Source: an uncultured virus (IMG/VR IMGVR_UViG_3300044953_000297) (taxonomy: Duplodnaviria; Heunggongvirae; Uroviricota; Caudoviricetes). Taken from it: 64,000 nucleotides of DNA. The notes beneath the pieces are model-generated. The model made no database searches and was not told the DNA's origin. It worked only from the letters and a program-made list of their open reading frames with translations. The position numbers and the translations under genes are program-made. Location of the stretch: the IMG/VR virus record IMGVR_UViG_3300044953_000297. One strand, given 5' to 3'. This document shows positions 43,972 to 54,694 of this stretch, in pieces; the first letter of the stretch is position 1, and the number at the start of each line of letters is the position of its first letter.

Positions 43972-44664
43972 TTAATTATTAAATTGTTTTGAATCTCTTT
44001 CTTGTACTAACTGTGTATATTTTTTTGATGGCGTAGGTACGCCTCCCACTTTATTATATAAAGCCTCCATCGTGGACATTTGTTTAGCCGCTACATCCGC
44101 TTTTTCAGACTTTTTACTATCCGTACTACCAAATCCACCATCTCCTCGATCAGTTGTATCTAATTCGTTAACCAAAACAAATTCCACATTTTCTACTTTG
44201 GTTACTTTGAGTTGACATACTTTATCACCTTTTTTATAGATTTTATCAGTGTTGTATGAACCCACAATTTTTTCTGTAAATATATTAAGATCCTCTGGCT
44301 GCCAGATATACTTGAATCTAAGCAATACTTCCCCACGATAATCAGCATCGATTAGTCCGATACAATTAGCTAGTACCAAATTATATTTACTTATACTACT
44401 ACGAGGAAACGCTAGAATATCATAATCTGTTAAATCTACACTAAATCCTGTATGAGATACTTGTTCTTTTTGGACGGCCATTTTCAGATTGGTCTTATAT
44501 TGAATATAATCAATTCTTTTATAAGAACCATCTTCACGTTGAATACCCACAATTTCCGGATCACTTGTAGTGACAACATCATATCCAGTTGCACGTTTTG
44601 TACCTTTTGTAGGTAAATTACTTACTTCTTCGTAAGTTTCATTTTTTAAAACTTGTATTTTCAT
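43972..44664 (-). CDS. dut: dUTPase (trimeric)
   Basis: ATGYD, PRSS, GLIDADYRGE, RGDGGFGST. Confidence 0.92.
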   Translation of the reverse strand: MKIQVLKNETYEEVSNLPTKGTKRATGYDVVTTSDPEIVGIQREDGSYKRIDYIQYKTNLKMAVQKEQVSHTGFSVDLTDYDILAFPRSSISKYNLVLANCIGLIDADYRGEVLLRFKYIWQPEDLNIFTEKIVGSYNTDKIYKKGDKVCQLKVTKVENVEFVLVNELDTTDRGDGGFGSTDSKKSEKADVAAKQMSTMEALYNKVGGVPTPSKKYTQLVQERDSKQFNN

Positions 44665-45626
44665 ACTATTTCATTTTTAATCTGTTCGATGTCTACCTTG
44701 TGCAGCTCAAATCCAAGTTTTCCTTGCGGTAGATTTTTAATATCGTACCCAATATTTGTGTATATGTCAAATTTTTTAACAGGTGTAAAGTTATTAATCG
44801 TAAAATCCATAGCTGTACTGAATTGATTACACATATTTTTACTATTAATTCCTCCTTCACTCATCGCCCACTTACGACCCTCAAATCCATATTTTTCTCG
44901 TTTTTCACTGCCTACGAGGTACCAATACATAATAGCGTCAGCTATGTCACTATAGTCTGTCAAGTCATCCATAATATATGGTGTTGGAGGACTGCCTTGA
45001 AGGTTTTGAACTTTGGTCCAAATAGGTTTTACCCAAACACCATGTTTCTTATATTTTGCAGTAACATTTGTACCGAATTCTAAATCAAATTCGACTGGAG
45101 AACCATCATCCTTAGTCATGCCTATTTGATCTTGTAGACCACCTGTAACAGTAGCTATAACAGGAGTACCGCACATTATACTTTCAGCAACACTCAATCC
45201 AAATCCTTCGTTTGAACTTATATTTGCGGTTACATCTGCTAAATTGTAGAATGCAACCATTTCTTCTGGAGTTCTACGAGATTCATCGATAACAATTTTA
45301 TACTCAGGACATACAGCTTGTACTGTGGCCGGAAGATCAGTTCCAGCTTCACATACTTTATCGGTGTGCATAATTAATGCACATTTTTTTGCTTCCTCTG
45401 GAGTTAATGAGGAACAAAATGATTTGAATGCCATTATTAAATTTGCAGGATGTTTACGATGTGCATTTCTACTATTAAATGCAATAATAAAATTGTATTC
45501 TCCGTCCCCTAGATATTCTTTTTTAATTTTATTGATAGACGAGTCACCTTTTGGAAGGGGCTTAAATTCGTCACTATTGATACCGTGCGGTACTAGATGT
45601 AATAGATGTTTTCCTTTTACTGGCAT
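44661..45626 (-). CDS. GT-B glycosyltransferase, C-terminal part
   Basis: VPHGI, RK, NEGFGLSVAESIMCGTPVI. Confidence 0.82.
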   Translation of the reverse strand: MPVKGKHLLHLVPHGINSDEFKPLPKGDSSINKIKKEYLGDGEYNFIIAFNSRNAHRKHPANLIMAFKSFCSSLTPEEAKKCALIMHTDKVCEAGTDLPATVQAVCPEYKIVIDESRRTPEEMVAFYNLADVTANISSNEGFGLSVAESIMCGTPVIATVTGGLQDQIGMTKDDGSPVEFDLEFGTNVTAKYKKHGVWVKPIWTKVQNLQGSPPTPYIMDDLTDYSDIADAIMYWYLVGSEKREKYGFEGRKWAMSEGGINSKNMCNQFSTAMDFTINNFTPVKKFDIYTNIGYDIKNLPQGKLGFELHKVDIEQIKNEIV

Positions 45627-45629
45627 AAA

Positions 45630-46222
45630 TTATCCTTTAATAATGTTTCCGTTGTTATCAAAATCACCATAGACACTGGTACAATTTTCTGGTCCCAATA
45701 CCCACTTATTTATATTATATGTTTGTTTGCTAATTGTAAACAATGCATCACAACTTTGATAGAATGGTTTATTCCACATTGGATACGGCAAATCGTCCCA
45801 AATATTTAAGTATGTTAATGGAATTTTACTGCGAATCTGATTTTCTACAGCATATAACCATCCCCAAAAACGAGGATCTGTAAAGTGAAGAATAGCATCT
45901 GGTTTTTCAATAGCCATAACTTGGAATAAAATTTCCTCGTCTCCATACCCGTCTACCGGATATAATTTAAGATAACAGTCGTTTCTGCCAGTCATTTTAT
46001 CACTGGCCTCTTTCATATCTACAATTTTACCTTTCTCAGGATGATTAATTGCACCCGCAATTTGTACCCAATCGTAGTGGTGTAGTGTGCCTAATACAAG
46101 TTCTCGACTCATAGTGGCTACACCAGAATGCATTCTCATTACAAATCGTCACTCAGAAGAAGAATTTTCTTCTTGTGACGATTTGCTGCCTCCTTAACAG
46201 CGATATTATCAATATTAATCAT
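45630..46222 (-). CDS. GT-B glycosyltransferase N-terminal part, interrupted by TTG-TAA-TG at 46137-46144
   Basis: MINIDN...KKKILLLSDDL* (46222-46139) then, in another frame, RMHSGVATMSRE...TDPRFW...WDD. Confidence 0.78.
46137..46186 (-). other. Candidate ribosomal bypass element 2 (long hairpin + TTG-TAA-TG)
   Basis: GCAAATCGTCAC/GTGACGATTTGT 12-bp stem plus AAGAAGA/TCTTCTT 7-bp stem, covering the TTG. Confidence 0.6.
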
Positions 46223-47218
46223 ATTATTTTATTTATTGTTCCGTCGTCATTAAAAATATAAATTTTATATTTAAACCCACACTGAATCGCAGCGTTTTGT
46301 TTTAATGACATATTTTTTTTTGTGTAAATTGTATGTATAAATTGATTTAACATCAATCAATAAATTATCGGATTTTATATAAAAATCTGGACAGTGAATT
46401 CTTTCTTTTTGATTCTCTATATATTTTATCTTTGGAATTAAAACTCTGTCATTTATAATTTCTGTTTCATTATATTCCGTTAATAAAAGATTCAAGCCAA
46501 ACGGCTCATATCCTTGACACTTTACATTTTTCCCAGATAGCAGTGTATAATTTTTCCATTTACATTTTATAGAATTTGAAAATTGCGGATTTTCAACTCC
46601 GTGAGTCTTTAATAAAGTACTTTTAGATTTTTCTTTCACACTATCCAACTGAAACCCATTTTTTACGCCATATTTTTTTAACATTGTCTGTTTATACGAC
46701 TCACTTCTTTTTTTAAGATTTTCGTGATTCCAAGATTTTTTGATAGACTCCGCATTTCTATTTACCCGAACATCGTTAGTTTTTGTCAATCCCACATTCC
46801 ACGATATAAATGATTTTCGTTTCTTATATTCTTCATTGTTTTTTATAAATAAAGATGAGTGAGTGTGAATGTAATCGTGAAATCCATCTTTTATATTTTT
46901 GAATGTAGATTTGGTATTACAACCACATTTACACAAAGGCGCAATATTATTGCAATAGTATTTTATGTAATAAGATTCTAAAGTTTCTTTATGTGTTTTT
47001 ATATGTCGTGACAAAGATTGTGAACCCTTTATATTTTTATTACAATTTTTACAAGTATATGTTATTATATTTGGATTTCTTTTCCCAATATTAGATGTTG
47101 GAAATTTATTAATATAATCTTCTAATGATATATTATGAATTCTTTTTAAATGAGAACCATTTAAACGGTCTTTCATATTTAGACCACACAATTCACATTT
47201 TATTAGACAATTACTCAT
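46219..47218 (-). CDS. Zinc-finger / PD-(D/E)XK homing endonuclease-like protein (frameshifted at A run ~46315)
   Basis: CxxC..H..H fingers, CKCGC, KYGVKN repeats, QGYE, PDFY...IDVKS; removing one A extends it to a TGA overlapping ATG 46222. Confidence 0.75.
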
Positions 47219-47358
47219 TTTTTAATGCTTCCGCTAATCTTTGTTAAAATTGCATTTTCCACAAATCTATTCATTTTGTAACCATTATCATCGCAGAACG
47301 ATTTTAATATTATTTTGAATTTTTTTGATATTTGTATAGACCATTTATCATCTTTCAT
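47215..47358 (-). CDS. Small ribbon-helix-helix-like protein (47 aa)
   Basis: MKDDKWSIQISKKFKIILKSFCDDNGYKMNRFVENAI...; ATGA overlap with endonuclease. Confidence 0.6.
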   Translation of the reverse strand: MKDDKWSIQISKKFKIILKSFCDDNGYKMNRFVENAILTKISGSIKK

Positions 47359-47384
47359 ATCTAATATATATTATATATCTAAGA

Positions 47385-47447
47385 TTAAATAAGAAAAATC
47401 TTACTTAAATCATCGTCACTTAATAAGAGTATTTTCTTTTTCTTCAT
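47385..47447 (-). pseudogene. Abandoned original 5' end of the GT-B gene
   Basis: MKKKKILLLSDDDLSKIFLI*, ATGA-coupled to upstream ORF; duplicates KKKILLLSDDL at 46142-46174. Confidence 0.75.
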
Positions 47448-47665
47448 TTATTAAATCCTCCAGATGATAATGAAAATGGAGCATTGTGACTTAGCTTAGT
47501 ACAAACACTCTCACTTATTTCGGTTTGAAAATCTGTATCTGTCAAATATTTTTCTAGACATTTATTTACAAAATCTTGAAAAGATATTTTACCTCGTATA
47601 TTAATTTCTTTGAATTGATTGTACAATTCTTGATTAAGTTTTACTGTTGTAACAAATTGATCCAT
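47444..47665 (-). CDS. Ribbon-helix-helix-like DNA-binding protein
   Basis: TTVKLNQELYNQFK...SFQDFVNKCLEKYL. Confidence 0.65.
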   Translation of the reverse strand: MDQFVTTVKLNQELYNQFKEINIRGKISFQDFVNKCLEKYLTDTDFQTEISESVCTKLSHNAPFSLSSGGFNK

Positions 47666-47707
47666 AACATATGTACATATACATATATTTACATATGTAC
47701 ATATGTT
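47666..47707. repeat. Tandem ACATATGT palindromic boxes with 15-bp inverted repeat (putative operator)
   Basis: AACATATGTACATAT...ATATGTACATATGTT directly upstream of the RHH start codon. Confidence 0.7.
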
Positions 47708-47715
47708 AATTATAT

Positions 47716-48603
47716 TTATAATTTGTCGGCTTTTGCGTCACAATTTTTCTTATAGTGAATGCAATACTTGCAGTTCTTCTTTCTATCACCTGGAATTTTT
47801 GGATAAGAATTATTAATATTATATGATCCATCTGAATTGAATCCGTGATCCAAGAATTGTATAAAGTTACCAATCGATTCTTTTATTACCGGTGAACTAC
47901 TTGCTGGTTTAAATATTTGTATACGACTTTGAGGAAACGCTGCAGTTTCAAATAATTTTCGTTTTACGATAAAAAATTCAACATCAATATTGGTTAGTGG
48001 AACATTAAATTTTTTACTATACACACTTTTATACAAATGCAGCTGTGCATATTTACTTTCATCTTCTTTTTGATATTTGTTCCAACCATTTGATGAAGTT
48101 TTAAAATCGATGATACGATAATTTTCTTTATTTTTTTCCTTGAGTACGATATCGATAAAACCAACAAACTCAACATTGTTTTTAATTGAGATTTCTAAAG
48201 GAATTTCAATGCCGATTAATTCGTATTGGTCGCTGGGAAAATGTTTAATTCTATTTGAAGACTTCAAAAATGTATCGATGATATCATGTCCATCAAATGT
48301 AAAATCTGTAAATTCTTGGCCGTCAAGATTTTTAATCTTTTTAGCTTCTTCTGTGAATTTATCCAAGAATAACTTTTTAACATCGAGTGAATCCGCAGCC
48401 GATACACTTTCTTTATATAACGCAGTTAAATATGTTTGAAATGCGTGATGTATCGCCGTACCAAATGTAGTGTGAATACTATCATCTCGTTCACGAAGAT
48501 TCTTTACATAGTCTAAGTACCATTTATGTGGACATTTCAAAAATGTCGAGTATTGACTAAAACTTACACGATTCTTTTTTATTTCTTGAGTCTCCATTTT
48601 CAT
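47716..48603 (-). CDS. PD-(D/E)XK (RecB/Cas4-like) nuclease
   Basis: SFSQ...CPHKW, FGTAIH, GFID, IDFKT, QLHLY, CKYC..C. Confidence 0.85.
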   Translation of the reverse strand: MKMETQEIKKNRVSFSQYSTFLKCPHKWYLDYVKNLRERDDSIHTTFGTAIHHAFQTYLTALYKESVSAADSLDVKKLFLDKFTEEAKKIKNLDGQEFTDFTFDGHDIIDTFLKSSNRIKHFPSDQYELIGIEIPLEISIKNNVEFVGFIDIVLKEKNKENYRIIDFKTSSNGWNKYQKEDESKYAQLHLYKSVYSKKFNVPLTNIDVEFFIVKRKLFETAAFPQSRIQIFKPASSSPVIKESIGNFIQFLDHGFNSDGSYNINNSYPKIPGDRKKNCKYCIHYKKNCDAKADKL

Positions 48604-49660: not shown

Positions 49661-49888
49661 ATGAAACTAGAACAACTTAAATCATTATCTGAAGATGAAC
49701 TTGTTTTATTGTGGGGGTGCATTAATTTAGTTGAACCTAAAATTGTGCAATCTTATGATTTAGAACCGTCTTTATTTCCATCAATAAACCATAGAAAGTT
49801 AATGGATAAGCTTACTAATTGTAAAACTAAAATAAAAGAAGAACACCATGCACTTTTTGATGGACTTCTTAACAAGTTGCGTATATAA
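49661..49888 (+). CDS. Hypothetical protein
   Basis: 75-aa ORF upstream of polB. Confidence 0.55.
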   Translation: MKLEQLKSLSEDELVLLWGCINLVEPKIVQSYDLEPSLFPSINHRKLMDKLTNCKTKIKEEHHALFDGLLNKLRI

Positions 49889-49895
49889 TTTTATA

Positions 49896-51935
49896 ATGTA
49901 TCAAACTATCTTTATTTCTAAAAAAGACAATACTGTTCATCTATGGGACGATCAAAAAGGTTACATAAAGTTCCCATATCGACCATATGCTTATCGTAAG
50001 CGTACTGGTGGTATGTATCGCAGTATTTATGGAGATGAACTTGAAAAAGTTTATAAATTTAATCCCAAAGATCCTTCGCTATTTGAAAGTGACGTTCCAG
50101 ACACCACACGCGTCTTGATCGACGCATATGAAGATAGTGACGAACCTTCTACGGGTCATAGGTTAGTTTATTACGATATCGAAGTAAGTACTGAAGGTGG
50201 GTTTCCAAAGGTTGATGAAGCTGATAAGGAAATTACAGCTATTGCTTTGTACGATGCTACAACTGAACAATATACTGCATTTATTTTGGATAAGGATGAT
50301 CGTCTACAAGAATACAAGAAGGATAATGTAGAAGTACGTAGTTTTACAAATGAAGAAAGTTTGTTGAGTCATTTTCTAACTAAATGGGAAGAGATACAAC
50401 CAACTATTGCCACTGGATGGAATATTGATGAATTTGATACTCCTTATTTGTTTAATAGAATTAAACGGGTATTTGATGATCGTGAAGCCAAAAGACTTTC
50501 TCCCATCAAAGTTTGTTATAGAAACGATTGGAGTAAAAAGATAGTTGTAGCTGGTATATCATTTATTGACTACATGGTTTTGTACAAGAAGTGGAATATT
50601 AAACAAGAACCTAGTTATGCTTTGGGTGCGATTGGTAAGAAAGTTGTTGGGTTGGAGAAGATTACTTATAAAGGTAGTCTTGATGATTTGTATAAAGCTG
50701 ATATCAATCGTTATATTGAATATAATCTCAATGACGTTAAAATTATTGTTGCGTTGGAAAAAAAGCTTCAGTTTATTGAACAAGTTAGGGCTATATGTCA
50801 CAAAGGACACGTTCCGTATGATTGTTTTACGATGAGTTCACGTTTCATTGAAGGTGCAATTCTTATGTATCTTCGTCGTAAAGGACAAGTTGCTAAGAAT
50901 AAGCCCGTAGATGGACGTGAAGAATATGAAAATCAGATGGAACAAGGCGAAGAAGGATTTGAAGGTGCTTATGTAAAAGATCCTGTGCCTGGCCGGTATG
51001 ATTGGGTCTTTGACTTGGATCTTACTTCTATGTATCCAAATATTATTATTAGTTTGAATATTAGTCCCGAAACGAAAGTGGCAAAGGCTGAGAATTGGGA
51101 TCCAGAAAAGTTTATAAAGAATGAAGTGGAAACTGTTCAAGTTGGTAGTGCTTCTTATACAAAAGACGAATTTAAACAGTTGCTTGAAAAATCACAGTAT
51201 AGTATTGCTAGTAACGGTGTTATGTATAAACAAGATTATCAAGGCGTCATACCTGAAATTCTAGTCAAATGGTTCGATGAACGAAAAGAACTGCGAAAAC
51301 AAGCCAAGAAACACGGTGATGCAAAAGAATGGGAAAAGTATGAGTTCTACGATCAAAGACAAAAAGTACAAAAAGTACTTCTCAATTCAATTTATGGTGT
51401 ATTGGGTCTACCAATTTTCAGATTTTATGACAAGGATAATGCGAGCGCTGTTACTTTGACGGGTCAGGATATTATTAAAACTGCTAATAAAGCTATTAAT
51501 CAGTATTATAAGAGAACTCTCAACGAGACTGAGAATAAAGATTATGTTATATATGTAGACACAGATTCAGTTGCGTCTGATAGCTTAGTTAAGACCGATT
51601 TATATGGTGATATTAAAATTTGTGATTTATTTAATAATCTTTCGATGAATAAAGATGTTCAATATATTGAAGATATTCTTGGAAAAAAATTTATTTTTCC
51701 AAATAATTTGAAGATGCCTTATTACGATGAAACTGAAAAGATTGTAAAGTTTGGCAATGTAGATTATATAGAAAAACATAATGTTAAAAAAATTTCGTAT
51801 AAAATTAAAACCAAAACTGGAAAAAGTATTATCGTTACTGAGGATCATTCGGTTATGATTTTAGAAAATGACAAACTTGTTAAAAAACTTACAAAAGATT
51901 TAAAGAAAAACGATAAAATAATTTCGATTTGTTGA
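49896..51935 (+). CDS. Family B DNA polymerase N-terminal part + split intein N-fragment
   Basis: Exo DIE, GWN..FD, YNLND; DLTSMYP; K..LNSIYG; YVDTD followed by intein SVASDS at 51567. Confidence 0.93.
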   Translation: MYQTIFISKKDNTVHLWDDQKGYIKFPYRPYAYRKRTGGMYRSIYGDELEKVYKFNPKDPSLFESDVPDTTRVLIDAYEDSDEPSTGHRLVYYDIEVSTEGGFPKVDEADKEITAIALYDATTEQYTAFILDKDDRLQEYKKDNVEVRSFTNEESLLSHFLTKWEEIQPTIATGWNIDEFDTPYLFNRIKRVFDDREAKRLSPIKVCYRNDWSKKIVVAGISFIDYMVLYKKWNIKQEPSYALGAIGKKVVGLEKITYKGSLDDLYKADINRYIEYNLNDVKIIVALEKKLQFIEQVRAICHKGHVPYDCFTMSSRFIEGAILMYLRRKGQVAKNKPVDGREEYENQMEQGEEGFEGAYVKDPVPGRYDWVFDLDLTSMYPNIIISLNISPETKVAKAENWDPEKFIKNEVETVQVGSASYTKDEFKQLLEKSQYSIASNGVMYKQDYQGVIPEILVKWFDERKELRKQAKKHGDAKEWEKYEFYDQRQKVQKVLLNSIYGVLGLPIFRFYDKDNASAVTLTGQDIIKTANKAINQYYKRTLNETENKDYVIYVDTDSVASDSLVKTDLYGDIKICDLFNNLSMNKDVQYIEDILGKKFIFPNNLKMPYYDETEKIVKFGNVDYIEKHNVKKISYKIKTKTGKSIIVTEDHSVMILENDKLVKKLTKDLKKNDKIISIC

Positions 51936-52107
51936 AAGATATCAATAAATTAATAAATGAAACTTTTGACTATCTCATAAAATGAATTATATTATTGACG
52001 AAATTGAATCCGTAGAACCTTTAGGTGAAGTTCAAGAAGATTTTTACGACGTTGGTATGCGAGACACACCACATACATTTTTTGCTAATGATATTTTGGT
52101 TCATAAT
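51567..52107 (+). mobile_element. Split intein in PolB (IntN 122 aa, IntC 42 aa)
   Basis: Ser1, VTEDHS block B; FYDVGM..PHTFFANDILVHN/S. Confidence 0.92.
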
Positions 52108-52965
52108 AGTTGTTTTGTTAGCGCACTGCCTATTATCGAGAAAACGATGCCTGATATTGATGTAAACAATGAGAAACAAATGACCAAAGCTATTTTGGAA
52201 GTTTGTACAGAAGCTCAAAATCATGTAAATGATACATTCAATATTATGGCAAAGAGAATGTTTAATGTGGTCAAACATCGTTTTGATGCAAAACAAGAGG
52301 TTATTGCCAAGACCAGTTTTTGGCTGGCTAAGAAACGATATGCTCAGTTTATCATTAATACGGGTGGTATTGAATGTGATGAACTTGAAGTCAAGGGTAT
52401 TGACGTTGTTAGAACATCTTTCCCACTTAGATTCCGTAAGTTTATGGAACAATTCTTACAAGATATTCTTCGTAAAGTTGATAAAGAAAAGATTGATGCT
52501 AATATTTTGAAGTTGGTAGAAGATTTGCCTACGTTTAATGTGATTGAGATTGCAAAGAACACTAGTGTAAAGTTTAAGAGTCAAGATGGTAAGAAAGAAT
52601 ATGCTCCCAAGAGTCGTAGTCCGTTTAAGTATGTGTTAGGCACACCCGCACAAGCTAAAGCAGCTATATTCTATAATGATTTACTTGAACAGTTTGGTTT
52701 GACTAGGAATACACCTAAGATTCTTCATGGCCAAAAGATTAAGTGGGTATATCTTAAACAGAATGAGTATGGTGCTGAAGGTATTGCTTTGAAAGCGGAT
52801 GGTACAGATCCGGATGAAATTCTTGAGTTCATTGAGAAGTATGTAGATAGAACTGCTATGTACGAACAAGAACTTAAAGGTAAATTAAAAGATTTCTATG
52901 ATGTATTGAATTGGGAATATCCATCTGTAAATGATGCAAAAGCAAACGAGTTTTTTAGTTTTTAA
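51982..52965 (+). CDS. Intein C-fragment + family B DNA polymerase C-terminal part
   Basis: HN/SCFV, KKRYA, KGIDVVR; tail NEFFSF. Confidence 0.93.
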   Translation: MNYIIDEIESVEPLGEVQEDFYDVGMRDTPHTFFANDILVHNSCFVSALPIIEKTMPDIDVNNEKQMTKAILEVCTEAQNHVNDTFNIMAKRMFNVVKHRFDAKQEVIAKTSFWLAKKRYAQFIINTGGIECDELEVKGIDVVRTSFPLRFRKFMEQFLQDILRKVDKEKIDANILKLVEDLPTFNVIEIAKNTSVKFKSQDGKKEYAPKSRSPFKYVLGTPAQAKAAIFYNDLLEQFGLTRNTPKILHGQKIKWVYLKQNEYGAEGIALKADGTDPDEILEFIEKYVDRTAMYEQELKGKLKDFYDVLNWEYPSVNDAKANEFFSF

Positions 52966-53153
52966 TTAAAATTAAAGCTGTGTTTTAATAATATATATAT
53001 TAATGTTATGATTACAAAAAAAATAGAAGATTTAATTGTTATACAAAATAAAGACATTTCATTTGGAAATGTTGTTACATATTATATTCAATCCTCAAAA
53101 ATTTAATAGCAAACTAAGCGATTTCTACTCTATATTGAAGTGGGATTATCCAA
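52911..53153 (+). repeat. 243-bp direct repeat, copy 1
   Basis: Matches 54640-54882 (offset 1729). Confidence 0.92.
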
Positions 53154-53196
53154 CTCCAGAGAGTAGAAAGGCAGAAGAATTTTTTGGATTTTGAGT

Positions 53197-54072
53197 ATGA
53201 AATATAAGAAACTTTTACCTTTTCACGATGATGTAAAGGTTATGACCCAGTTTGGAGTTCTTCCTTTGTCTGTAATGGCGTTTTTAAATGATGATAAATG
53301 GGAGTGTGCTTATTTTGAACAAGACGAATCTGAAAAACGCAGGTCGGACGACTGTGAATACTTAGCCGGCCTTGGAATGAGTGAATTTAGCAGTGCCATC
53401 TGTGAGTTCATTGTCAAGTATTGGAGTTTGGAGAACGCAAACATAGTTGACCCATTTGCTGGCAGAGCTACACGAGCAATAATTTCTTCAAAGTTAAATC
53501 GGAAGTATGTCGGTTACGAAATTTCTCCAATGACATACACCCGAAGTCAGAAACAATATTTTAAGGCCAAGGTTGACCCAATTTTATATCTATCCGATGG
53601 TTGTCTTATGAAAGAGACTCCTGACGAGTTTGCCCATTTGGTTATGACGTGTCCTCCGTATGGTTCAATCGAAAAGTATGAGAGTGTTCCTGGACAGTTG
53701 AGCGACATAAAAAGCTATGACGGGTTTTTGACAAACATAAGTGTATGTGCATCAAATATATACAGAGTTCTTAAACCGGGTGGGTTCTGTTGTTGGGTAG
53801 TTGGTGATTGGAGAGACGGTTCTGGATATCATCAATTTAGCAACGATAGTATTAATATATTTAAGAAGAATGGGTTAATTCCCCATGACACCATTATTAT
53901 AAAGAACAACTCCCCCTTCGCTGCATTACAAGCCGGTAAGGCCGCCAGTAAAAGAATTTCTTCAAAGGTTCACGAATACCTTTTAGTCTTTCGTAAAGAG
54001 GGCGAATTAGACCTAACTGGATTGAAATTGACCGAAATAAACAAATCCGCTGAAGAATTCTTTGAGATGTAA
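53197..54072 (+). CDS. DNA (N6-adenine/N4-cytosine) methyltransferase
   Basis: DPFAGRAT motif I, TCPPY motif IV, LKPGG, HEYLLVFRK. Confidence 0.85.
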   Translation: MKYKKLLPFHDDVKVMTQFGVLPLSVMAFLNDDKWECAYFEQDESEKRRSDDCEYLAGLGMSEFSSAICEFIVKYWSLENANIVDPFAGRATRAIISSKLNRKYVGYEISPMTYTRSQKQYFKAKVDPILYLSDGCLMKETPDEFAHLVMTCPPYGSIEKYESVPGQLSDIKSYDGFLTNISVCASNIYRVLKPGGFCCWVVGDWRDGSGYHQFSNDSINIFKKNGLIPHDTIIIKNNSPFAALQAGKAASKRISSKVHEYLLVFRKEGELDLTGLKLTEINKSAEEFFEM

Positions 54073-54127
54073 AATAAGTTTACATTCAATACCTTTGTGA
54101 TAACCTAAAAACAGTCTTATACATAAT

Positions 54128-54694
54128 ATGAAAAAACAAATCTTAGACACATTCATTAAAAAATATTCACTTAACGGAATCATCAACTCAGTAAAGTGGG
54201 CAGTTGACTCCGACAAGAAAACCTTAAAGACAAATGCGATAACCGAAGAAAAGAACGTGTTGGTTTCAGTTGAGGTGGCAAACTTTGATTCGATTGGTGA
54301 AACCTGTGAATTGGGTGTCTATGAAACAAGTCGATTGTCAAAAATGTTAGCGGTGTTGGATGACACCGCAGAACTCGGACTTAATAAAAAGGACGACAAA
54401 ATCACCTCGGTTAGTTTTTCTGACGATGCCACTGATGCACAATTCATTACCGCCGATTTGTCGGTCATTCCTGCTGCTCCGAATTTAAAGAAACTCCCTG
54501 AGTTTGGCACAGAAATTGAACTTGATAAGGATTTTGTGGACCGGTTTATCAAGGCCAAGAGTGCGTTGCCAGAAGTTGACACTTTCACTCTTCTTATGAA
54601 CAAGAAGAAGAAACTTTTGGATTTCTATAATGTGTTGAGTTGGGAATATCCATCTGTAAATGATGCAAAAGCAAACGAGTTTTTTAGTTTTTAA
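54128..54694 (+). pseudogene. Truncated second sliding clamp fused to PolB C-terminal tail
   Basis: First ~160 aa paralogous to 59009-59746; ends DFYNVLSWEYPSVNDAKANEFFSF. Confidence 0.8.

Follow-up and report, generated by a model that had tools for sequence, protein, structure and literature searches.

How might a virus gene that has lost its 5' end to an invading element still be read as one protein? The question is raised by a 64,000-nucleotide stretch of DNA (hereafter, the window) from an uncultured member of the Caudoviricetes, IMG/VR record IMGVR_UViG_3300044953_000297, in which a gene for a GT4-type glycosyltransferase (GT) is interrupted inside codon 13-14, between the residues DDL and RMHSG. 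Ahead of the break lie an endonuclease gene and, overlapping its end, a short leader open reading frame (ORF) that repeats the first residues of the GT in partly different codons. The reading developed here is that of a mobile cassette resembling MobA/gene 60 of phage T4, in which a gap in the invaded gene prevents self-cleavage and ribosomes pass it by a short hop. Taken whole, this statement stands in our judgment evenly poised between right and wrong; that the segment is a mobile endonuclease cassette, by identity and by mobility, we consider highly probable.

The interruption emerges from comparison with the 80 best IMG/VR relatives of the N half of the window GT. Seventy-nine have the uninterrupted form M(K)KKKILLLSDDLRMHSG and lack the five extra bases, TAATG, that separate DDL from RMHSG in the window; thus, the window gene is broken at this point, and the sequence at position 47447 is its former start. 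As the first-pass annotation of this DNA had proposed, that start is abandoned and coupled to the upstream gene, whose stop it overlaps as ATGA, and it now opens an orphan ORF of 20 codons. The elements stand at the places that the annotation gave them, and its interval for the cassette, 46137..47447, spans this old ATG through the fifth extra base. Past TAATG, the GT reading resumes with AGA ATG CAT (RMH), and the N half that follows is 86% identical in amino acids to its nearest uninterrupted relatives. Homologues of the 73-amino-acid gene on the left flank stand directly upstream of the GT in 63 of the 80 relatives, the nearest with 82-90% amino acid identity. The same neighborhood of nuclease, small gene, and GT is found in Flavobacterium phage immuto, where the GT is one 480-amino-acid ORF, and in Microcystis phage Mel-JY01, where it comes as N and C halves and starts with MKKKKILLLSDDLRLTSG....

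Evidence for movement comes from natural populations. Logan contigs of four runs (X1, X6, X7, and X9) were placed on positions 45500..47800; X6 is an aquatic (lake) metagenome from 2019 that belongs to a separate study. One X6 contig (depth 5.99) joins position 47412 to 46136 with CTA between (...AGT GAC GAT CTA AGA ATG CAT...), which is the empty allele, and the same run carries cassette contigs (depth 7.3) on the same 30-base flank; one contig of the run extends out of the cassette over the left junction as far as 47441, and another begins at 47412 and leads into the flank. Because three X6 contigs (flank, cassette path, and empty-allele path) have bases 47441..47412 in common, they form a branch within one population. 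Further loci, designated by L numbers, were taken from the IMG/VR relatives (L052 among them) and from a metagenome scan with an alignment of ten endonucleases as the query (80 loci), and a search for relatives of the GT of L166 added L170, with the same junction, and L173, with a new one. These supply a second filled/empty pair: L166 and L170 are filled, while L171 and L172 are empty, have no endonuclease, and carry a GT that is 99% identical. The two pairs bear out the earlier proposal that a mobile endonuclease cassette has replaced the GT 5' end with a recoded copy. Whichever way the gap is translated, they also show that a homing element is actively polymorphic, present in some genomes and absent from others, in a wild phage population of a lake.

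The distribution of the cassette is patchy and does not follow the GT phylogeny. Its endonuclease is carried by only 2 of the 80 GT relatives, and the window GT shares 81-86% identity with 34 uninterrupted relatives and only 72% with that of L052, which bears the cassette. A protein search of IMG/VR with the endonuclease matched solely the window's own virus, and DNA patterns drawn from the leader matched only the L052 contig and a contig of L094.

Could the arrangement be an artefact, either a chimeric join of strains at the repeated 5' end or the product of homopolymer and indel errors? Two IMG/VR contigs, both a 100% match to the window, end within the endonuclease gene and overlap there by 127 bases, and the endonuclease is frameshifted within a run of nine A's (A9). 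The overlap is consistent with a branch in the assembly graph. Against an artefact, the junctions are 100% identical in both IMG/VR contigs, which are possibly not independent of the window, and in runs X1-X5, which may share the source sample; the X1 contigs are identical to the window. Independent support is provided by X6, X7, and 11 loci of different metagenomes, and L088 and L089, with endonucleases 82% and 60% identical to that of the window, have the five-base form of the gap as well. An artefact is, therefore, scarcely credible.

What enzyme does the cassette carry? The window protein matches Pfam family DUF7487 (PF24308) with an E value of 7.5e-28 (98.4 bits versus a cut-off of 27), and the proteins of L062, L152, L139, and L166 match it with 127-184 bits. 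A weak C2H2 finger is also detected, as is a PHROG match to "homing endonuclease" (E 5.7e-7). Full-length relatives measure 324-342 amino acids; one of them, P0004, is an intact protein of 332 amino acids that is 82% identical to the window's and ends in ...MSLKQNAAIQCGFKYKIYIFNDNGTLNKII, as does the window's shifted tail. In an AlphaFold model of P0004 with nine relatives (pLDDT 78), residues 213-332 match the folds of TnsA (VIA-align Z 8.5; root mean square deviation, 3.1; 104 residues aligned), Vsr (Z 6.6), and I-Bth0305I (Z 6.1), and further matches to this C-terminal part are Hjc and VRR-NUC nucleases. A Foldseek search against pdb gave no match at an E value of ≤0.001, with PD-(D/E)XK cap-snatching nucleases in the top rows at about 7e-3, and a PDB sequence search with the endonuclease returned weak zinc-finger matches only. 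Moreover, D278 of a CPDF motif and K291 of a (D/E)VKS motif are invariant in an alignment of 10 relatives. It is therefore reasonable to regard the protein as zinc fingers joined to a PD-(D/E)XK nuclease, while the name homing endonuclease rests on context. A literature search found no paper on DUF7487, and the cassette offers a first functional context for this family.

The endonuclease gene itself appears in several states of repair. X6 (two contigs) and X7 (one contig) have A8 in place of A9 at position 46313, one base fewer, and read the endonuclease in one frame; the A9 frameshift of the window could be a recent inactivation. Runs of nine A's are long enough for transcriptional slippage, which possibly restores some endonuclease product. 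The L052 endonuclease, 57% identical to the window's, is frameshifted at a different place, and that of L164 is reduced to a 43-residue remnant.

The co-occurrence of insert and endonuclease among relatives that the first-pass annotation implied is observed. Beyond the window, we found 11 interrupted loci (L052, L088, L089, L164, L091, L094, L090, L166, L170, L173, and L139), and in all 11 the interruption adjoins an endonuclease of one clade or its remnant. Within the 80-locus set, the GT N half lies directly downstream of the endonuclease in 11 cases; 8 of these are interrupted (all those just listed except L052, L170, and L173), and two, L152 and L140, have no interruption and carry a short N-terminal extension. 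A maximum-likelihood tree computed from 28 endonucleases, which omits L164 (a remnant), L170 (with the junction of L166), L154, and most of the 84 database hits, places all 10 gap-linked endonucleases within one 13-row clade (support 86/68) that also holds three database proteins. L152 and L140 are sister to this clade, and L062 is distant. L154 (positions 1419-1600) carries about 97 bases of the GT 5' region as a tandem duplication, which begins precisely at the DD|VRM codons and lies directly behind an intact 460-amino-acid DUF7487 endonuclease; L152 has the same arrangement without the duplication. This is possibly another repair scar at the same spot.

Where, then, did the element enter, and how were its ends joined? 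Both junction scars in the window, the end of the old copy and the gap, map to the same Leu/Arg codons, and by analogy with the MobA element the putative break and recognition site would be GACGAT/YTA/AGAATG. On the left side, homology to the L052 cassette begins at about 47407. The string AAGTAAGATTTTTC is common to the window and to L088 and L093; in those two loci its TAA is the stop of an upstream gene of the 73-amino-acid type, and in the window it comes after ...GACGATGATTT. This layout points to a broken GT that was joined, via TTAAG, to donor intergenic DNA at an AAG microhomology. In the mechanism proposed here, the free-standing DUF7487 cassette would home into the conserved DDL|RMHSG codons at the GT 5' end and supplies a replacement for that end, namely, a leader with a unique extension and a synonymously recoded KKKILLLSDDL. 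The right side of the insertion would be resolved within the GT, and the illegitimate join on the left would have stranded the original start and brought in a ribbon-helix-helix (RHH)-like gene of the donor. The insert at the break point would destroy the endonuclease target and so protect the carrier. A co-conversion tract longer than about 100 bases could not be demonstrated between the window GT and L052 and others, where the whole region is conserved.

Two parts of the first-pass annotation concern this left side. It had noted that both copies carry a small insertion, and they do: the old copy has an extra GAT, which is real by comparison with the X6 empty allele (...GACGAT CTA AGAATG...), and the new copy has five bases that are missing from 79 of the 80 relatives. 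The proposal that the GAT is a second immunity insert finds no support: the old copy is already without the right half of any site, and the GAT sits at the illegitimate left junction; our guess is that it arose by triplet slippage in a useless remnant. The 47-amino-acid RHH-like gene that it listed is not an accessory specific to the endonuclease: tblastn finds homologues of it in 12 of the 80 relatives, 10 of them resident upstream of the GT in loci without the endonuclease, and at least four interrupted loci (L089, L094, L166, and L139) have no homologue upstream of their endonuclease. Its product matches PHROG 582, an Arc-like repressor, weakly (E 0.007), with no Pfam match, and its sequence pattern is that of the resident 73-amino-acid gene. 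The repeat-rich region upstream of it is conserved and common to the window from about 47403, and relatives carry TTTTCTAA-type repeats there. Two or three tandem TCTAAT(C/T)TTTT repeats lie about 60 bases upstream of resident genes of this type (L056, L054, L062, and others), and the window version is shortened, with an inverted repeat TAAGAT/ATCTTA. Judged by its position and sequence, the array is a possible promoter or operator.

What did the cassette put in place of the 5' end that it displaced? The leader starts with a unique N-terminal extension (NTE) of 16 amino acids and continues with the recoded KKKILLLSDDL. Old and new copies agree at 11 residues, with synonymous differences at 5 of 10 aligned codons; this likeness is beyond chance. 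Likewise, seven of nine codons in the L166 leader differ from those of the native gene in L171, all synonymously, including those for the clade-specific residues F, C, and P. The leader extensions are 13-19 residues long across loci and loosely alike.

Through the recoding, the copy is self-complementary and can form a long hairpin, in which AAATCGTCAC is paired to GTGACGATTT and AAGAAGA to TCTTCTT, for a total of 19 bp. The 5' arm consists of the codons for NRHKK, and the 3' arm consists of those for LLLSDDL up to the last sense codon, TTG (46144..46142), at whose G it stops, with TAA directly after. Folded as 96 bases of RNA, the window hairpin has a free energy (dG) of -30.5 kcal/mol and a z score of -4.35, and 0 of 200 shuffles are as stable. 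In a 4-kb alignment with L052, it is also the best-conserved stretch of 60 bases (58/60, versus a typical 35-45/60). The first-pass annotation recorded neither this hairpin nor the overlap of TAA with ATG, nor that the 47-amino-acid gene is resident in other phage lineages.

Comparable hairpins accompany the interruption elsewhere, with z scores of -4.13 in L052, -5.61 in L089, -5.11 in L091, -5.20 in L094, -5.84 in L090, -4.69 in L166, -6.97 in L139, and, from a mononucleotide shuffle, -5.3 in L173. The range is -4.1 to -7.0 in 9 of 10 sequences folded with shuffles; L164, which retains an endonuclease remnant only, has -1.97, and L170 was given no separate fold because its sequence here is that of L166. 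Uninterrupted 5' ends score +0.9 to +1.7, whether the endonuclease is present (L152 and L062) or not (L056 and L014; n = 4 in all). In each junction type, the hairpin closes at most 3 bases from the stop. Across 10 sequences, 4 of 10 outer-stem positions (3, 4, 7, and 11) show compensatory changes on both strands, from A-U to G-C or from C-G to G-C, in which the 5' arm, in its N/S/D-R-H/Q codons, answers a synonymous change of a D or L codon or a replacement of S by A. These pair counts were taken per sequence from each minimum-free-energy fold, with the stop codon as the anchor, and are thus fitted to each fold; a MAFFT alignment was not used, because in it the 5' arms of L094 and L139 were misaligned.

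The module of leader, hairpin, stop, insert of 5-15 bases, and resumption, always at an R codon, recurs in the 11 other loci, and eight junction types are distinguished (Table 1). The stop lies directly 3' of the take-off codon in all eight types, and TAA, TGA, and TAG all occur. Gaps are found both in frame and out of frame, the latter in three junction types, which excludes read-through as a general route. Stop-codon reassignment was rejected, since each of the three stops is used at the gap and three junction types shift the frame. A simple -1 frameshift would suffice, on paper, for the window (UUG to UUU) but fails for L091.

Table 1. The eight junction types, each read from the end of the leader to the point where the GT resumes
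Last leader codon	Stop	Spacer	Resumption	Loci
TTG	TAA	TG	AGA	window, L088, L089
TTG	TAA	TTG	AGR	L052, L164
CTC	TGA	TT	AGA	L091
CTG	TGA	CTG	AGA	L094
CTG	TGA	AAA CTA	CGA	L090
CCG	TGA	CA	AGA	L166, L170
CCG	TAA	AAA CCT	AGA	L173
CTT	TAG	AAA GAG GGA CTA	CGT	L139

The spacers follow a pattern of their own. The codon before R is the take-off codon or a synonym of it in five of the eight types, and its last two bases are equal to those of the take-off codon in the other three. Take-off codon and landing codon are identical in L052 and L164 (TTG/TTG) and in L094 (CTG/CTG) and synonymous in L090 (CTG/CTA), L139 (CTT/CTA), and L173 (CCG/CCT), while the match is confined to the second and third positions in the window (UUG/AUG), L091 (CUC/AUU), and L166 (CCG/ACA).

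How would a ribosome cross such a gap? We propose that a ribosome on the leader would stall when UUG is occupied by Leu-tRNA and UAA stands in the A site. At the stall, about 22 bases of the 3' arm would be inside the ribosome, and the inner 7-bp stem would already have emerged; zipping of the 12-bp outer stem on the exiting mRNA could then drag the message forward, so that AAGGAGG ends up beside the landing site. The peptidyl-tRNA would re-pair five bases on, at AUG, whose second and third bases match, and AGA would be read next, giving one polypeptide, NTE-KKKILLLSDDL-RMHSG.... Generalized to all eight junctions, the refolding hairpin would push the ribosome and its peptidyl-tRNA over the stop and 2 to 12 further bases. 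We tentatively suggest, with slightly less than even confidence, that these cassettes make up a second family of natural programmed bypass elements, one of independent evolutionary origin, which has co-diversified with the DUF7487 endonuclease and both immunizes and rescues the invaded gene.

Start codons and Shine-Dalgarno (SD) motifs near the gap allow a different account, in which the mobile cassette is the same, translation terminates at UAA and restarts at the overlapping AUG (UAAUG), and the GT is made in pieces. The 27-residue leader would then give the first beta-strand in trans to M-RMHSG..., and either the hairpin would bring AAGGAGG near the start or coupling would be obligate, with only a hairpin-melting ribosome reaching the start. 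Such re-initiation is in our view rather unlikely, though a serious contender. Restart-like signals are present as UAAUG in the window, L088, and L089 (ATG overlapping TAA), as UAA-UUG in L052 and L164 (TTG after TAA), and as GUGA in L166 (GTG overlapping TGA), and the one T by which the window and L052 gaps differ alters the frame relation and keeps the start codon at the same spot. In the window, AAGGAGG is followed by 3 bases, the 44-base hairpin, 2 bases, and AUG, so that the hairpin leaves an effective SD-start spacing of 3+2 bases (3+3 in L052). Moreover, the GT is already split into N and C halves, and the cassette ORFs are chained by ATGA or TAATG overlaps that could act as a coupling chain. 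Precedents exist in T4 genes 38 and 25, where a hairpin shortens the spacing (PMC3014915), and in MobA- and MobE-split enzymes, which work as complexes with added tails (bioRxiv 10.1101/2022.08.31.505936).

The same signals are, however, unevenly spread. L173 and L139 have no canonical start codon ahead of the conserved R..SG loop, the start in L090 is 12 bases downstream, with an effective SD-start spacing of 19 bases, and L094 and L091 offer only CTG or ATT. AAGGAGG is present in 6 of 11 interrupted loci compared for it (window, L088, L089, L052, L164, and L091) and missing from L166, L173, and L139. Among the long ORFs of the window, only 7 of 62 are preceded by an SD-like motif, against a background of 5.6%; since such motifs are rare there, a conserved perfect AAGGAGG is unusual under a hop or re-initiation alike. 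AAGGAGG as such is not enriched in the window (3 occurrences versus 2.9 expected). Re-initiation also leaves unexplained why the codon before R tracks the take-off codon. A 27-residue peptide that supplies a central Rossmann-fold strand in trans would be unusual as well.

On balance, the short hop is favored because the module is universal while start codons and SD motifs are not, because L173 and L139 have no start before R..SG and the protein sense of the copy is kept, and because the codon before R follows the take-off codon. Nevertheless, a number of points weigh against it. The landing AUG of the window matches UUG at only two of three positions, and an AUG overlapping the stop with AAGGAGG at about 5 bases is what re-initiation needs; the repeated Leu or Pro codon can also be explained as a one-codon overlap of the recoded copy with the resident gene. 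The gap follows after only 27 codons, which makes a split product cheap, and the in-gap take-off stem-loop of gene 60 has no counterpart here. Among the sequencing runs listed as containing the locus, none is of RNA. Filled and empty alleles are 97-99% alike, which marks the invasion as recent, and intact downstream GT frames are no proof of function; the GT N half of L088 has a premature stop. Also, the gap-linked clade has weak support, and the related endonucleases of L062, L152, and L140 precede uninterrupted GTs, so the gap is not required by every family member. A test of GT function by dN/dS was rejected in view of the recency of the invasions.

Recent invasion bears on one more account, that of a pure parasite that has knocked out a dispensable GT, in which the hairpin would serve the endonuclease as an mRNA 3' stabilizer or processing site or as a palindromic DNA site. 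We consider this improbable. It agrees with the close likeness of filled and empty alleles, which leaves little time for decay, with the premature stop in L088, with the frameshifted endonucleases of the window and, elsewhere in the gene, of L052, and with the GT being probably an accessory gene. Yet the GT amino acids are kept despite a change of nearly all codons, across endonucleases that are 31-35% identical, and the recoded copy follows clade-specific residues (F, C, and P in L166 and L173), which a mere hairpin need not do. Resumption is always exactly at the R codon, and the GT frame stays open over the available sequence in 10 of the 11 other loci with an interruption, L164 included. 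A promoter/terminator scan, which is uninformative in DNA of 32% GC, found no terminator at the hairpin, and no T run lies 3' of it. An explanation other than a hop, re-initiation, a dead gene, or an artefact is very improbable.

How does this cassette compare with known systems? The MobA/gene 60 element was reportedly described by Bonocora et al. in 2011. T4 gene 60 was for decades the sole known case in a bacterial virus of ribosomes skipping noncoding bases, and all of its relatives reported in 2022 are homologous elements of that one topoisomerase gene. According to a preprint by Manning and Atkins (bioRxiv 10.1101/2022.08.31.505936), the MobA element consists of an NTE, a recoded region called HomR, and a stop-containing gap, and it is the gap, not the recoding, that blocks MobA. 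On that account, the parallel drawn in the first-pass annotation stands. In both systems, a mobile endonuclease gene is followed by an element-encoded NTE, a recoded HomR over the target, and a stop-containing insert at invariant residues; leader and endonuclease ORFs overlap; filled and empty alleles occur in near-identical genomes; and the endonuclease is often decayed while the gap persists, as here in L164. The parts differ, however. MobA is an HNH enzyme, whereas the DUF7487 protein has an unrelated zinc-finger/PD-(D/E)XK fold, and the target is a GT 5' end rather than the middle of a topoisomerase gene. The gene 60 gap measures 50 nt, against 5-15 bases between take-off codon and R, and the structure here is wholly 5' of the take-off codon and built from HomR, with no stem-loop in the gap. 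Unlike in the MobA element, the upstream gene is unsplit and has no C-terminal extension, and the bypass is a proposed one. A literature search for endonuclease-linked short gaps outside gene 60 found none, the papers it returned from 2019 on being about gene 60 or recoding at large, although preprint supplements might list nontopoisomerase cases.

Stop hops that arise without stimulation are said to occur at about 1%, in work by Weiss et al. in 1987 and O'Connor et al. in 1989. A preprint by Wills, Parsawar, and Atkins (bioRxiv 10.1101/2024.12.09.627546) deals with low-level "stop hopping" in Escherichia coli, in which 9 bases specify one amino acid, and with the proposal that pairing of exiting mRNA drives forward bypassing in gene 60. 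Matched codons around a stop, as in stop hopping, are found in L052 and L164 (TTG TAA TTG) and in L094 (CTG TGA CTG). However, the E. coli cases are artificial and unstimulated, while these are natural genes with a conserved hairpin and leader, and the window form would be a +5 hop with an imperfect match.

For re-initiation, the closest relatives are split enzymes and split SD signals. The MobE-split nrdA of Aeromonas phage Aeh1 was reportedly characterized by Friedrich et al. in 2007. As set out by Manning and Atkins (bioRxiv 10.1101/2022.08.31.505936), that enzyme is made in reassembling pieces with added tails; its fragments are sizeable, whereas one piece of the GT, under this alternative, would be a 27-residue peptide. 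According to a review (PMC3014915), a hairpin reduces the SD-start spacing of T4 gene 38 from 22 to 5 bases and that of gene 25 from 27 to 11. Here, similarly, a hairpin lies between SD and start and would reduce 51 bases to about 5, but it is the coding sequence of the upstream ORF and ends at its stop, and the combination of SD and start is found in only part of the family.

The cassette thus shows the logic of gene 60 assembled from unrelated parts in a different gene, with a five-base gap behind a co-varying hairpin. If the hop is true, its eight junctions are a minimal, naturally varied system for asking how mRNA folding behind the ribosome drives forward slippage, and gene callers systematically mis-annotate such genes as broken. 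If it is not, the locus would be a natural case of an endonuclease that makes a three-piece enzyme with a hairpin-coupled restart.

The coordinates of the features discussed above, and of their neighbors, are collected in Table 2.

Table 2. Features of the interrupted GT locus, in order of transcription (window positions)
Feature	Position	Strand	Remark
PD-(D/E)XK nuclease gene	48603..47716	minus	Pfam PDDEXK_1
Resident 73-amino-acid small gene, RHH-like pattern; left flank	47665..47444	minus	TGA overlaps original GT start
Orphaned original GT start, MKKKKILLLSDDDLSKIFLI then stop, 20-codon ORF	47447..47385	minus	ATG overlaps TGA of 73-amino-acid gene (ATGA)
Native part of orphaned start	47447..47412	minus	
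Left junction GATTTAAG, includes extra GAT	47411..47404	minus	
Inserted segment, 1275 bases	47411..46137	minus	Replaces single Leu codon CTA of empty allele
Donor intergenic region (putative), inverted repeat TAAGAT...ATCTTA	47403..47359	minus	Upstream-region alignment
47-amino-acid RHH/Arc-like gene	47358..47215	minus	Stop overlaps endonuclease ATG (ATGA)
DUF7487 endonuclease gene	47218..46219	minus	Main frame 47218..46271 (315 amino acids), last 33 codons in frame 46356..46219
A9 run where endonuclease frames part by one base	46321..46313	minus	
Leader ORF, MINIDNIAVKEAANRHKKKILLLSDDL then stop, 27 codons + TAA	46222..46139	minus	ATG overlaps TGA of endonuclease tail
AAGGAGG, three bases 5' of hairpin	46195..46189	minus	
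RNA hairpin, 12 + 7 bp	46185..46142	minus	Fold computation
5-base insert TAATG	46141..46137	minus	TAA 46141..46139 overlaps ATG 46139..46137
GT N half, RMHSGVATM... to in-frame TAA	46136..45630	minus	MRMHSGVATM ORF from 46139
GT C half, Glycos_transf_1	45626..44661	minus	Pfam PF00534, E 1e-12; in frame with N half behind TAA TTT

Several minor observations concern the GT and its surroundings. The split between its N and C halves (window 45626-45632, minus strand) consists of an in-frame TAA followed by TTT ATG, and in L089 (4095-5206) the same site is occupied by a 188-amino-acid ORF with a NUMOD3 motif (E 3.6e-4) and two small ORFs; the split could be a scar left by another homing endonuclease. 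The GT is one unsplit ORF in L091, L094, L166, L139, and phage immuto. L088 is the nearest relative of the cassette and has an intact endonuclease; the premature TAA in its GT N half (L088:2346-2348) stands where the window has a Gln codon and reflects either decay of the gene after invasion or an error in a single contig. Between the nuclease gene and the 73-amino-acid gene lies an AT-rich ATGTACATATGT-type repeat (window 47656-47732), a motif common to many other contigs, at which the summed contig depth rises 20- to 40-fold above the surroundings in X1, X6, and X7 and about 3- to 5-fold in X9.

Elsewhere in the window, a family-B DNA polymerase is encoded by two plus-strand ORFs, 49848-51935 and 51982-52965. 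The first ends in an intein-like insert just after YVDTDS (Intein_splicing E 9.8e-7, below the cut-off), and the second begins with the intein C-terminal-like sequence ...ILVHN|S; the insert is possibly a split or broken intein. The C-terminal tail of the polymerase (...WEYPSVNDAKANEFFSF) recurs, exactly or loosely, at the ends of three more ORFs (53194, 54072, and 54694, within 52900-54694, plus strand). It looks as if nested insertions had each brought or re-created a copy of the polymerase 3' end, a mirror image of the GT 5' duplication.

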